From Podarcis vaucheri (taxonomy: Eukaryota), in NCBI GenBank assembly GCA_965113315.1, contig OZ220369.1: a stretch of DNA of 64,000 nt, one strand, 5' to 3'. This document shows positions 8,356 through 64,000 of the stretch, piece by piece (position 1 is the stretch's first letter; every line of letters starts with the position of its first letter). The position numbers were made by a program, and so were the translations under genes. The notes beneath the pieces are model-generated. The model saw nothing but the letters and a program-made list of their open reading frames with translations. It made no database searches and had not been told where the DNA came from.

Positions 8356-8619
8356 TGTTAAGTTGTGGGTGAACGTATCAGACGACATAGCGATTCTTCA
8401 AACAGCTCTTGTTTATTCACAGGCCAGAACAGAACTGAACTGAAGGGTTCAGCCAGCCTGCTTATATAGAGCTCCAGTACAATGCAACTGTAACATCTTT
8501 CTGTAACTATCCAATCACTGAACGTCACTTTCAATCCCTTATTTGCATATGTGGACCTGAGTGAAAACTATCTACAGTATCCCCCTGCTGGCCCAGGGTT
8601 AGAACTTCAGTACATAACA
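8356..8619 (-). mobile_element. Solo LTR (Ty3/Gypsy-like), 264 bp
   Basis: TGTTA...TAACA inverted termini; 5-bp TSD CACAC/GACAC (1 mismatch). On the minus strand, a TATATAA box (about 8462-8468) precedes AATAAA (8412-8417). Its start TGTTATGTACTGA shares ATGTACTGA with the Gypsy LTR near 62215. Confidence 0.85.
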
Positions 8620-8733
8620 GACACAGTTTGACACATTACAGTCTGCAGTACATTTTAAATGAAGGTATAATAAAGGGAGGAAAGGGGGAGGCACAAGGAA
8701 CGGGATGGAATTCTCATATGTTTTGGTTTAGAC

Positions 8734-9569
8734 CAGTGTTTCCCAACCTTTTTTGGGCAAAGGCACACTTGTTTCATGAAAAAAATCTCGAGGCACACCA
8801 CCATGCCAGATGGGGAAAGGTCACTTTTTACTTATGTAAAAAAAAATAAAAAAATAGTAACAGCATAGAAGGTAATGGTTAGGCTAGCATCCCTCTTCCA
8901 AATATGCTAGGTTTTTATTTGCAGGGACTGTTCTACATGGGAAAGCATTCAGCACTGTCATTCTCCCATCTGCCATCTGAATTGGTACTATTCTGGGTCA
9001 ACTTACTCTGCTGCATGTGTAGATGAAAATGGCACCAAGTGTGGGGGAGGGGGCAGAACAGGTTTCAGATACAGGATATTAAGCATACACGTACTTCAGA
9101 TTGAACTGGTTGCTTGCTTTGCAAGTTTTCATTTCCCAAATGACTGCCTTGGCAAGCGCAATACCTACCAGGCTCAACGCCGGTCTCGCGCTGCCGCTTC
9201 CCGCGCTCTCAAGGACCCGGGAGGAGGAAGGCGTGAAGGGAATCTTGAAGGCGCAAAAACCTCACGCATGCGCAGGCCTTCCGCCTGCGACAGCCCAGTA
9301 AGCCGGCCGAAGCGAGCGGCGATGGGATGTGGGAGGGAGCTCGCTCGCCGCCCCGCGTGTGCCTATGTGGGGCACATTACAGCCCCGTGACGTCAGCGCC
9401 ACGCAGGCAGCCAGGCAGGCAGACGGCGAGAGCCCCGCGCTGGGCGGCCTCTCCTCGCCGCCGCCGCCCCGCCTCTCGTCGCCCGACTCGCCCGCCTCCC
9501 TCCCACGGCACACCAGGCAATGTCTCGTGGCACACTAGTGTGCCGCAGAACACTGGTTGGGAAACACTG
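8734..9569. mobile_element. Non-autonomous hAT (Charlie/Buster-type) element, 836 bp, with a CpG-rich interior
   Basis: Perfect 15-bp TIR CAGTGTTTCCCAACC / GGTTGGGAAACACTG; perfect 8-bp TSD GTTTAGAC (8726-8733 / 9570-9577); no transposase ORF. Confidence 0.93.
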
Positions 9570-9814
9570 GTTTAGACCCAGTGTCAATACATATACTAGC
9601 ATGAGTTTGGGGAGTCAGTCTGAATGAAACCCTGGGTCCTCTTCCAAACCTGGGATTCTGTATCTGTAAGGGGAAAGTGGCCAGAGCAGTTCCTTTGTTA
9701 AGGGAATGACTTTGGCTGCCTAGTTACATACCACAATATAGCACATCCAAAGAAGTTGCTCTGTGCCAGGTGGGCCTTCCCTCCACCTTCCTCACCTGTC
9801 AGATATTTATGTTT

Positions 9815-27478: not shown

Positions 27479-29539
27479 AATGTGTAAGGGGGTCAAATGA
27501 ATCTTAACTGGAAGAGAGTGCCACAACTGTGGGGCCACCACTGAGAAGGCCAACGATTTGCAGCAGGCTTGCAAGCAGAGTTGCTCTATTGGACAATGGT
27601 GGCTGTATGAGAACATGCTTGTGTTGAGATTCAGTTCTTGAAATCTCGGGTTAAAGGGGTATTTGATAGCAGGCTTGAAAGTGCCATCTAGGGTGGACAC
27701 TACTGGGCTAGGTGGGCCAGTAGCCCATCCAGAGTGGTTTAACAGTCCATCCTTCTCCCCAGGGAACTGCACCTCAGGGAAGGGAAGAGGGGTCTCTCAA
27801 AACCCTTAACAAACTACAGTTCCCAGAATTCTTTGGGGAAAGCCCTCACTGTTTAAAATAGTATAATCCTGCCTTAAATAAACAGTGCAGACATGGCCCT
27901 AGTGTTTTATAAACTGTGGCTTTGTGATTTGCTATTATACTATGAATTTTATGTTTTTAAAATTATGTTTTTAAAGCTCTCCCTGACTTGGGAGAGTTTT
28001 ATAAAGAAAGAAAGAAAAATGCCATTCTTCTTCCAAACACACTTTAACAAAAGAAGGAAGAAGAGAAAAGCAAACATTGTATCTTGGGTACTTATTGCTG
28101 TTCTAAGGTAGACATACTTTAAGAAGAGAGAGAGAGAGAAAAGATTGTATCACAAATTCTTTCTACATTTCTAAAGGTTAACCCAAAAGCCACAATGTGA
28201 TATAGAAAATTATGTCTTATAACTTTAAGAGTTTCTAGATTATATATATTGATTTGAATTAAATTGCCTCTAATACAGCTGCTCAAACATTATTATATTG
28301 GGAGAGTTAATCCCTAAAAGGTAGCCTATATGTTTCGAAATAAAATAAATAAGCCAACATGTCCTTGGAAATCCTTTTTTCTACTTTTGCCTTATGAAGA
28401 TCATCATAAGAAAAATCTAGGTATAACTGATAGGGCACAGAAGTGTTCCGCTTAGCCTGGATCATGCCCATTAGCTCCTGTTTGTTTGATGGTCTGCTTT
28501 TCCACCAATACCCACCCCTCCCCTTACAAAGAGAAAGGGGGTTCTGTAGAACTCAGAAACCTTTCTTCTGACTCTGCTTCACAGGGCCTGTATTCCTTAA
28601 ACCAAAGTTGTCAGCAGGGCCAACGCAAATTTATTTTAAGAGCTGGTTCCCTTTGAAATTCAATTGACTCAAGTAATGACTACTCTGTTGGCAGCAGGAC
28701 CTCTCTTTTAAAGGCAAGAGTGAAAAAGAAACCCAGTCCCTAGCCCCGTTACTCTAACAAGTGGATCTGGATTACGGTACATTAACTTTTTTGAAATGTC
28801 TTTTGCTAATTCTCGCACATTGTGTGGCGTTTAAACGGGGAGATTCTTCCCCTGGTGCCCGGGCTGATGCATTCATCCCCCTGCATGCACTTTATTAGGT
28901 ATTGTACTCCTGCCACACCTGCAGGTTTTAAACGACTAACTGGAATGTTAAAATGCTTGTGATTTCAGTCAAAGCAAAAGCTCAAAGGGCAAAGGTCAGC
29001 CTATTGTAGCCGGCCGCCCCAAAGACACGGAGGAGAAGTGCTTGTTAATGATAGCTACCCTATTCTGCAAAGATGCTTTCTTCTACGAGGCTGCTGTGTC
29101 AAAACACTAACTGAGCAATTCTGGGCATTGTCCGCTGAATAGGAGTTAAATTATTCTGTTTTGTCATTAAGTGATCCTTGATTGGCAATCCAGCACACAA
29201 AGGGGGTGATCCTTAAGGGACATAAAATTGTTAGGACTCTTTAAAAATGAATTGTGAATGGAGGGAGGACTCCACAAGGCCCATCTCTTTTGAGAAATTG
29301 CAGCTGCCCAAAAAGCACTGATAGAAACGCTTTTGGGTGGTGTTTGGGAAGATTCATCTGCTCAACAAGTCTGCTTAATTTCATTTTTGGGGACTGGTTG
29401 GCTCTTTTTTATTTCTGGATGGAGCATTAATGGTTGGTACAGTGATGGCCACTTCAATTAGAGGGCTTTTTTCTTTTCTTTTTAAGAATGAAACAAATTC
29501 ATGGGGGATTGGTAGGATCAACTGCTAAGCCACTTCTGG

Positions 29540-29984
29540 GCCTGCCCCAGGAGGTGGGGTTGCGGGCATCACGCCCTTCCCCACGTGAGCGGGGGCTGAT
29601 CTCAGCCCCCGCGAGAGCAGGGGAATCATGTCCGGCCACGCCTCCCGGCCAGCCAATCGGCTGGCTGGAGGGGGCGTGGCTTGCCCTATTTAGGGCCGGA
29701 GCGGAGGGGGCTCGCCCTCTCTTCTCCGGCTAGCCCCCAGAGCGGTGACCCGGGGGAGCTCTTAGCCGACGTGCCTCGGCGGGAGACTCCCCCGATCAGT
29801 GTTAACCCTTCACCGTGTCTCCAGCAAATGGGCTGGAGCCGGATAGTCGTTAGGACCAATGCCTAAGCCAATGCCTCTCATTCCTGAATTCAATAAAGTT
29901 GTGGCCTAATTCGCCCAATTAACCTTAATTATGGTGTCTCGTGTGTTTATTTATCTTGGTGGGGGGCGGGAACTCGCCACGCAA
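29540..29984 (+). mobile_element. Terminal repeat of a retroelement (solo LTR or DIRS/Ngaro-type end); left limit uncertain
   Basis: CpG-rich, with ordered CCAAT (29653), GC box GGGGCGTGGC, TATA-like TATTTA (29687), AATAAA (29892) and a GT-rich downstream tract. No clear TSD. Confidence 0.6.
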
Positions 29985-30246
29985 TTAACAGACACAGCTA
30001 GATAGAACCACCATGATTTAAGGCAGGACACCTCTGTTTCTGAGGACAACAAGGGAGAACATTTGGTTTCACAATATGCTAACAGCCATCTGCATTTCCA
30101 CAGTTTGAGACAGGGTACCTGACTAGTTAGACCTTTTAGTCTGATCTAGTTGGAGGGTCCACATAGCTTTTATTTTTAAAAAAAACCGAATGAAATCTAA
30201 TTTATTTAGTAATTCCTTACAGTTTGCACCTACTTACTATCTAGCC

Positions 30247-62215: not shown

Positions 62216-63998
62216 CCACATGCAGGCGTGACCATGGTGCTCGGGCGGACTCCCAGGACTGGACTGGGGCCCTTGGGGGATCTGGGCGGGATTCTTGGCA
62301 GGCCTGGCAGTGTTTGACCCAGGCCTCTATCTCTCCATCGATCCCCGGCCACCACACATAACTCCTGGCAAGGGCCTTCATTCTTACTACCCCTGGATGT
62401 GTCTCATGTAGGGCTGTGAGGACCCTTTTGCGGAGGGGCTGGGGAACAACGACTCTGCTTCCCCATAACAGGCACCCCTTGTGCGCCGACAGTTCATGTT
62501 TGCGAGTTGTGTAGCCGGCGAATTCTGGCCCGGGGCTGCCGCTGGGCCATCCCCTCCACACCCAGTCCAGGACCCGGGAGATGACCCTATCTTTCTTGGA
62601 ATGGTGTGCAACTTCTTGTGCCTGAATGGGGCGGTCGGGAAGCAGCTCCAGGCTCATAACCTCTTGTGCAGGTGCTGGGTCAGGGCCTGTTTCCGGCAGT
62701 GGTAGCCTGCTGAGGGCGTCCGCATGGCCCATCGCCTTCCCAGGTCGGTGAATCAATGCATACTGGTAGCTGGCAAGGAAAATTGACCACCTGAGGACCC
62801 GAGGAGACAGCACTTGGGGGGTCTGCTTTTCGGGGGCAAACAAGCCAAGCAACGGCTTGTGGTCAGTCACCACGGTGAAGGGCCGCCCATACAAGAAATC
62901 ATGGAATTTTTTTACTCCCTTCACGATTGCCAGACCCTCCTTGTCAATTTGCGAGTAGTTCCGCTCGGTTGCGTTGAGTGTCTGGGAAAAGTACGCCACC
63001 GGTACCTCTCTTCCATCCGAGAGTTGGTGCCCCAGGACAGCGCCAATGCCATAGGGTGAGGCGTCGCATGCTAGCACCACCGGCAGCCTCTCGTCGAAGT
63101 GTGCCAAGACAGAGTTTGAGACAAGCAAGTCCTTGACTGCCTGGAATGCGGCCTCCTGGCGCTGGCCCCACACCCAAGGGGCCCGCTTGTCCAGGAGTCT
63201 GTGTAGGGGCTCCGCTACCGCCGCCTTGTGGGGAAGGAAGGAATGGTAAAAGTTCAATAGTCCCAAGAAGGCCTGAAGTTCAGTCTTGCTCTTGGGCGCT
63301 GGGGCATCACAAATGGCCCGTACCTTGTCCCCAGTCGGGTGGACCCCTTCTGCGTCCACCATAAATCCCAGAAAGTCCACCTGAGGCACTCCTAGTAGAC
63401 ATTTTTCCCGCTTCACCTTGAGACCCGCCGTCTGGAAACGGTGCAGAACGGTGCGGAGGCGGTCCTCAAACTCCTCTGGTGTGGGCCCGGCAATCAACAC
63501 ATCATCGAAGAAGGGGGTGACACCAGGAATCCCTTTGAGGAGAGAGTCCATTAAATTCTGGAATATGCCTGGTGCCACGCTGACCCCGAATTGCAGCCGC
63601 TTTACCCTGAACGCTCCTCTGTGTGTCACAATCGTCTGTGCCTCTGCTGTGGCCTCATCTACTGGCAGCTGTTGATATGCTTGGGCCAAGTCCAGCTTGC
63701 CAAAAATTTTCGACCCAGCCAGGGTGGCAAGGACATGGCTGACCACTGGCACTGGGTATGCGTGGGCCGTGAGGGCCTTGTTTATGGTACATTTGTAGTC
63801 TGCGCAGATGCGGACCGAACCATTAGGCTTGACGGGTGTGACGATTGGAGTTTCCCAGGGGGCATTAGGCACCGGCTCCAGCACTCCTTGCTCCACGAGT
63901 CGGTCCAATTCCTCATCTATACGGGGTTTCAAGGCGAACGGGACCCGGCGGGCCTTGAGCCTGACCGGTCGTACTGCGGGGTCAAGCTGTAGCGCAAT
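62202..63998 (-). CDS. pol: Ty3/Gypsy retrotransposon pol (RT, RNase H, integrase HHCC), truncated at the start of the integrase core and open beyond the window end
   Basis: RT: RICADYK, KLDLAQAYQQ, RLQFGVSVAPGIFQ, PFFDDVLI, FLGLLNFY. RNase H: LACDASPYGIGAVL, YSQIDKEGLAIV, TDHKPL, ADALSRLP. Integrase: LHETHPG...CQAC, PWSRLHVD. The order RT-RH-IN indicates Gypsy. The frame stays open upstream of 63932 (IALQLDPAVRPVRLKARRVPFALKP). Confidence 0.96.
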   Translation of the reverse strand: MALQLDPAVRPVRLKARRVPFALKPRIDEELDRLVEQGVLEPVPNAPWETPIVTPVKPNGSVRICADYKCTINKALTAHAYPVPVVSHVLATLAGSKIFGKLDLAQAYQQLPVDEATAEAQTIVTHRGAFRVKRLQFGVSVAPGIFQNLMDSLLKGIPGVTPFFDDVLIAGPTPEEFEDRLRTVLHRFQTAGLKVKREKCLLGVPQVDFLGFMVDAEGVHPTGDKVRAICDAPAPKSKTELQAFLGLLNFYHSFLPHKAAVAEPLHRLLDKRAPWVWGQRQEAAFQAVKDLLVSNSVLAHFDERLPVVLACDASPYGIGAVLGHQLSDGREVPVAYFSQTLNATERNYSQIDKEGLAIVKGVKKFHDFLYGRPFTVVTDHKPLLGLFAPEKQTPQVLSPRVLRWSIFLASYQYALIHRPGKAMGHADALSRLPLPETGPDPAPAQEVMSLELLPDRPIQAQEVAHHSKKDRVISRVLDWVWRGWPSGSPGPEFAGYTTRKHELSAHKGCLLWGSRVVVPQPLRKRVLTALHETHPGVVRMKALARSYVWWPGIDGEIEAWVKHCQACQESRPDPPRAPVQSWESARAPWSRLHVDVLS

Positions 63999-64000
63999 GG

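Follow-up and report, generated by a model that had tools for sequence, protein, structure and literature searches.

Large-scale capture of gene fragments by cut-and-paste transposons is a hallmark of plants, and in the available portions of the rice literature Pack-MULEs are described as preferring GC-rich gene fragments, reaching many copies and, in a subset, containing promoter sequence (PMC5861414). A broad survey of animals found almost only single copies: the sections available from Tan et al. 2021 give 4 multicopy Pack-TIR cases among 370 in 100 animals, and report a frog hAT that carried a 5' UTR to three chromosomes (PMC8277862). In the same sections, animal Pack-TIRs hold host DNA inside terminal inverted repeat (TIR) ends, have a TIR-free parent and show microhomology at their junctions; hATs are the most common class, and the multicopy cases tend towards GC-rich DNA. 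Amplification of a host promoter together with a splice donor is described for the bat Helitron HelibatN3/NUBPL, with promoters of 15 genes in 4,690 copies that can splice into downstream acceptors (PMC4778049, in excerpt). Buster hATs have an 8-bp target site duplication (TSD) of the form nnnTAnnn, short TIRs and a ZBED5/SCAND3-like transposase, and the excerpted Buster papers describe no capture of a host promoter (PMC3517528, PMC3499496).

The hAT family reported here shares with these systems the captured GC-rich host DNA, the TIR-free parents, the junction microhomology, the amplified arrangement of a putative promoter with a splice donor, and the Buster ends. It differs from the animal Pack-TIRs, whose multicopy example in the available text has three copies (PMC8277862), in that one form alone has at least 74 verified copies, 214 elements fall into 28 structural clusters, the mosaics are serial and multi-locus, and transposase-coding copies also capture. 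Unlike HelibatN3, described in excerpt as a rolling-circle element with end-bypass capture (PMC4778049), it is a cut-and-paste hAT whose splice donor was made at a junction and whose used acceptor belongs to its own transposase exon. Unlike rice Pack-MULEs, plant Mutator elements with long TIRs that, in the text available, act as promoters (PMC5861414), it has 15-bp TIRs and lives in a vertebrate. In the literature covered, which held few subscription papers and neither Repbase nor Dfam, this hAT family is unreported; nor did that literature contain a TIR element with a captured promoter feeding its transposase.

We consider it probable that the element is a young, high-copy, non-autonomous Buster-type hAT with a mosaic of host DNA inside, whose autonomous parent captured a CpG island (likely that of TFDP1) and likely uses it to express its transposase. 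The family shows Pack-MULE-like behaviour in a vertebrate, and its capture is recent: donors, junctions and intermediates are still readable, and transposase frames remain intact and are transcribed. With such a family one can test by what route capture occurs, what makes CpG islands preferred targets, and how a transposon entering a new host comes by a promoter that functions there.

Structure and classification of the element

The window is a stretch of 64,000 nucleotides from Podarcis vaucheri (GCA_965113315.1, contig OZ220369.1). It contains an 836-bp element at 8734-9569, with composition and motifs placed as the preliminary description had them. Its features are as follows (donor coordinates refer to genome G000).

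8726-8733, plus strand: left 8-bp TSD, GTTTAGAC, with TA at positions 4-5
8734-8748, plus strand: left TIR, 15 bp, perfect
8734-8804, minus strand: hAT end corresponding to the autonomous element's 3' end, beyond the transposase stop
8802-9142, plus strand: piece 1, captured AT-rich DNA; TIR-free donor at C10:110,497,168-110,497,652
9140-9171, minus strand: piece 2, 32 bp left over from a 1.1-kb flank; TIR-free donor at C19:44,904,850-44,905,971 (L222)
9163-9171, minus strand: splice donor CTG/GTAGGT, made at the junction of pieces 2 and 3; exon ends at 9169
9171-9399, no strand given: piece 3, captured CpG-island piece, putative promoter; TIR-free donor at C18:81,751,474-81,751,696
9265-9274, no strand given: NRF1-like site, inherited from the donor island
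9388-9395, no strand given: CRE, TGACGTCA, inherited from the donor island
9402-9500, no strand given: piece 4, GC-box-rich, foreign to the older element end and longer in sister subfamilies
9501-9569, minus strand: hAT end corresponding to the autonomous element's 5' end; contains GGCACAC subterminal repeats
9555-9569, minus strand: right TIR, 15 bp
9570-9577, plus strand: right 8-bp TSD, GTTTAGAC

The perfect 15-bp TIRs and the TSD on either side of 8734-9569 bear out the boundaries proposed earlier. Judged by its ends, the element is a Buster-type hAT MITE: TA occupies TSD positions 4-5 in 29 of 30 elements of an unselected first set (and in 208 of 214 TSD-bounded elements, a set selected for a matching 8-bp TSD), nnnTAnnn being the Buster signature alongside short TIRs and a ZBED5/SCAND3-like transposase in the excerpted text (PMC3517528), and its 15-bp TIRs lie within the short-TIR range of Busters (5-27 bp). 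At 836 bp, without transposase and with many near-identical copies, it has the make-up of a MITE; its non-TE interior, with three TIR-free donors covering 8802-9399, is that of a Pack-TIR, and its dispersed copies, each with a distinct TSD, make it a multicopy one. Relative to the longer copies L092 and L098, the left hAT end (8734-8804) is shorter, owing to a deletion at a CAT repeat. Just outside the element, 8500-8620 of the window holds another transcribed repeat, with many reads, variants and loose ends.

Copies, age and CpG decay

A genome search with the element gave 1814 candidates, which is not a copy count; all of the best 40 that were scored are full length at 98-100%, and each of 30 copies checked has its own TSD with at most one mismatch. 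A 181-base interior query returned about 580 candidates, again not a copy count. Among the fetched loci, which are biased towards the best matches, 74 full-length copies were verified.

The division of the interior into an AT-rich part (8820-9160; GC 0.41, CpG observed/expected 0.14) and a CpG-dense part (9170-9510; GC 0.72, 44 CpG, observed/expected 1.01, against a window average of 0.27) holds by both measures. The CpG-dense part had been called undecayed. However, among the 74 copies the departure from the majority sequence is 3.9% (326/8379) at CpG positions and 0.51% (271/53254) at non-CpG positions, so that CpG sites have decayed about 8 times faster; 309 of the 326 CpG differences are of the deamination type. 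The window copy follows this pattern, with 8 of its 11 differences at CpGs, one of them beside the NRF1 core (9264). Since CpG sites are decaying faster than other positions, the CpG richness indicates youth rather than protection. At what we take to be the reptile rate, the divergence among copies corresponds to a few million years at most. We infer germline methylation of the copies, and most MITE copies, probably including the one in the window, are likely to be methylated and quiet.

The interior is a mosaic of captured host DNA

We have very little doubt that the interior was captured from the host and is a mosaic: it consists of four pieces, not of a single promoter-exon-intron block. 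The C10 donor of piece 1 is 98% identical to the longer variant L092, from which the window copy lacks about 55 bp, and no TIR lies within the 4 kb fetched around the C19 donor of piece 2. Piece 3 matches its C18 donor at 92% in the window copy, and the majority sequence of the copies differs from the donor by 5 mismatches and 8 gap bases in 230 columns. Words are shared at the junctions (ATG at 9140-9142, a single G at 9171, CGCAG plus two added bases at 9399-9402, and TCCCA at the right end), giving microhomologies of 1-5 nt.

Searching the genome with the DNA of the GC-rich part returned copies only and no donor. Two exact exclusion patterns likewise gave 7 and 9 matches, all from within the family, since the donor's anchor sequence is different; a pattern allowing two mismatches found it as one of eight matches. 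For piece 4, the 30 loci fetched from 990 candidates all bear TIRs and include no donor, and no donor was found in a search for the unique segment of L092. The C19 donor locus itself (L222, 44.905 Mb) starts at a pyrimidine tract followed by CAG, and RNA coverage on one strand spans the part of the composite L161 that matches it; L222 may be an expressed host exon. The older deletion derivative L178 (L178:2645-3676), which has a presumed ancestral 5' region, lies about 6 kb from the C10 donor. At L199 and L232, two family members lie close together or nested, and are possible substrates for composite elements. On the plus strand of the window, a 159-codon stop-to-stop frame (8911-9390) spans three capture junctions, probably by chance.

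The putative promoter piece comes from an island upstream of a DP-family gene

The C18 donor sits in the sole strong CpG island of 40 kb (observed/expected 0.86), an interval in which no TIR was detected; the match belongs to a 2-kb gene-front island and continues into unique sequence on both sides. E2F_TDP and DP domain exons follow downstream on the same (minus) strand, and the donor lies 2.3-2.5 kb upstream of the start-codon exon of this DP-family gene. That exon, 2.3 kb away, reads MAKD, which we take to resemble TFDP1. Na/H-exchanger exons lie upstream of the donor, an arrangement that matches the human order TMCO3-TFDP1, with TMCO3 upstream, as given in the available text of PMC3722009; the gene is likely TFDP1. 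The plus strand of the window corresponds to the sense of the gene, and the minus strand points away from it.

The motifs of the CpG-dense part, an NRF1-like site at 9265, a CRE at 9388 and GC boxes at 9442-9473, are where they had been predicted. The full NRF1-like sequence GCGCATGCGC is retained in 49 of the 74 copies and the CRE TGACGTCA in 70. In 5000 dinucleotide shuffles of 9170-9510 the NRF1 core arose 65 times, the CRE 3 times and both together never. The captured C18 DNA lies within a CpG island upstream of a start-codon exon, and its promoter status is putative.

The preliminary description had proposed that the element transduplicated the promoter, exon 1 and part of intron 1 of a host gene, and had asked for a TIR-free parental locus alongside many TIR-flanked copies. 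Both exist, and the capture of a CpG-island piece, putatively a promoter, from the 5' island of a DP-family gene stands. The exon 1 and intron 1 part does not: the window subfamily has lost by deletion the host's predicted exon 1 and the start of the intron, and the AT-rich part, read as the intron following the GC-rich part, maps to C10 and C19, whereas the promoter piece maps to C18. The island part towards the gene, with the predicted first exon and the start of the intron, is retained in the sister elements L153, L166, L287 and L302.

A splice donor made at a capture junction

The minus-strand CTG|GTAGGT at 9168-9163 is present as described. Its last exon bases and intron side come from piece 2, with a C-to-T change at +2, and no splice donor occurs at the corresponding position of the host island. 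The position is one that RNA uses, joined to the transposase acceptor (see below), but it is a junction-made site and not the exon 1 donor of the host gene that it had been taken for. It is retained in 72 of the 74 copies. Each MITE copy keeps the promoter-plus-donor layout and could trap downstream exons.

No start-site peak was detected in the window element in the 6-12% of three RNA runs that were read. Family reads there are sparse, on both strands and at low depth for a family of this size. Depth over the unique flanks at 8632-8719 and 9600-9800 is approximately zero in three raw-read runs, so that the read-out into flanking DNA expected if the window copy were acting as a mobile promoter cassette was not seen; the animals used for the RNA runs may lack the window insertion.

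Transposase-coding composites carry the adjoining piece of the island

Copies with a longer left end led to transposase-coding composites of 3.9-4.3 kb; a genome search with the Pfam hAT dimerisation domain had given no locus with the element's ends among 30. The transposase frame lies on the minus strand, the left end of the MITE being its 3' side and the right end its 5' side. It is uninterrupted, at 626-627 aa, in four of the eight composites examined, and L161, with a 627-aa frame, has the same ends as the MITE. The protein matches entries named ZBED5-like and SCAND3-like and gives only a sub-threshold zinc finger in Pfam; D, D, CxxH, RW and E motifs, whose roles we assign by assumption, are visible. 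It shares 95% identity with a Podarcis muralis UniRef entry and 92-96% with partial proteins of a snake, a newt and frogs, a similarity that suggests horizontal transfer.

All eight composites have C18:81,751,697-914, including the splice acceptor, directly before the transposase gene. This piece and piece 3 of the MITE (81,751,474-696) are exactly adjacent in the donor, and L153 and L166 carry 81,751,146-480. In L161 the C19 flank and a 35-bp duplicate of the element end lie between the two halves of the island. The older copy L178 has an AT-rich right end and, in place of the island, a different 5' region, which indicates that the island is a later gain; older copies lack the GC-rich piece. 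Promoter-like DNA lies upstream of the acceptor in all eight composites, with three NRF1-like copies in one. Shuffled promoter pieces are seen in the 5' extensions of the composites L155-L159, L164 and L169, the three NRF1-like copies being in L155, and the six others have a second piece with E-boxes, CCAAT boxes and a CAG|GTGAG donor.

In two bulk RNA runs, sense-strand coverage of the L161 transposase begins at the captured acceptor, depth rising from below 2 to 37 (X23) and 80 (X24). In a single-cell run (X22), the only one of four runs with this joint, 13 reads with 10 different starts join ...GAGCCTG, the donor position named in the preliminary description, to the captured transposase acceptor. 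The joined form occurs in none of 313 genomic loci. Compared with the L161-type composites found, the spliced reads are missing one base, and they were matched to no genomic template. A different leader exon is commoner on the transposase acceptor (L161:4544), with 41 reads in X24 and 68 in X22; it is absent from all loci searched and is possibly a trapped host exon. Host-exon trapping may therefore supply most of the transposase RNA. On balance, and in part by inference, we lean towards the captured island being used to express the transposase.

Sister subfamilies carry other gene fronts

In the fetched loci, 214 distinct elements bounded by TSDs form 28 clusters at 85% mutual coverage. A 1.3-kb sister cluster (32 fetched, 122 candidates; L091, L102, L106, L110, L118 and L254-L283) contains upstream DNA, an ATG and the start of a SIX domain, and a common 239-codon frame extends into the promoter piece in 9 of 30 fetched copies. 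Of its 122 candidates the best 40 were scored and 30 fetched; all have the family TIR, and none is a SIX donor. L151, L152, L160, L165 and L168 carry the first exon of TP53RK (E 4e-25) with upstream DNA and downstream intron-like DNA. A host origin of the SIX and TP53RK cargo is suggested by protein identity. Fragments resembling SIX, TP53RK and TFDP1, present in hundreds, can confuse gene annotation and methylation studies in these lizards. AT-rich cargo is also present in the family, and the sampling was not built to gauge a CpG bias. TcBuster is reported, in the available text, to favour transcription start sites (PMC3499496); by analogy, such a liking may be a cause of elements landing near islands.

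Further CpG-rich cargo types occur in L107, L108, L125, L128, L171, L229 and L291, and a 200-codon coding-like piece in L107 has no Pfam match. L302 (1979 bp) combines a TFDP1-island piece with a second promoter and an ATG exon that ends in a GT donor and that we presume to resemble the first exon of fumarate hydratase.

Proposed history and alternatives

One capture of about 770 bp, followed by template-switch insertions and deletions, is the simplest history. A horizontally acquired element would have gained this much of the island at its 5' end, in an orientation that lets transcription leaving the host gene run into the transposase. A later switch would have copied the 1.1-kb flank of an insertion and 35 bp of the element's own end into the middle of the island piece, creating a splice donor and an intron. 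Deletions and further swaps would have removed the transposase to leave the 836-bp form, which would then have spread in trans. Repeated template switching, as read from the junctions, is the likely means by which the mosaic was assembled. A bolder version is tentative, and we see it as possible but doubtful: the hAT would have swapped its own promoter for a host housekeeping island read backwards, feeding its transposase by splicing, and would have become a promoter-collecting vector, gathering the first exons and islands of numerous genes and spreading functional promoter-plus-donor cassettes by the hundred through a lizard genome in a few million years.

The competing accounts differ in what the island pieces do and how they arrived. 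That they are methylated, passive cargo, with transposase RNA coming from host exons spliced to the acceptor of one or two insertions, is rather unlikely; the eightfold CpG decay, the low RNA on two strands without start peaks and the commoner leader foreign to all loci searched fit this account, whereas the 13 reads joining the captured piece's own donor to the acceptor, and the promoter-like DNA retained upstream of the acceptor in every composite examined, do not. Composites could also have arisen by end bypass, a defective inner end being skipped and flank carried to the end of a second element. We regard this as improbable. Although the inner end abuts an 8-bp site (TA at positions 4-5) that coincides with the edge of the C19 donor, and only the outer ends have flanking TSDs, the outer module breaks off at the very base from which the inner piece continues in the host island (81,751,696/697), as would not be expected of bypass, and the other cargo swaps are internal, with short microhomologies.

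For a single contiguous promoter, exon 1 and intron 1 of one gene, promoter-active at the window locus, there are a promoter donor, use of the predicted splice donor position, and L287 and L302, in which island, predicted exon and the start of the intron form one piece; with the AT-rich part on C10 and C19, the promoter on C18, no splice donor in the host sequence there and silent flanks at the window copy, this account is very improbable, and its contiguous architecture is refuted by pieces from three chromosomes. Least probable of all, to the point of being barely credible, is that subterminal or promoter DNA native to the hAT makes up the interior, as the counter-case set beforehand would have it, and that the C18 match is a decayed transposon. 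The GC-rich piece does occur in autonomous copies, but these captured the same host DNA: the C18 match is TIR-free and embedded in unique gene-front sequence, and older copies lack the piece. We retain capture followed by template switching as the preferred history. Elsewhere in the window, 29501-30000 and 63501-64000 are two further CpG-island-like intervals.
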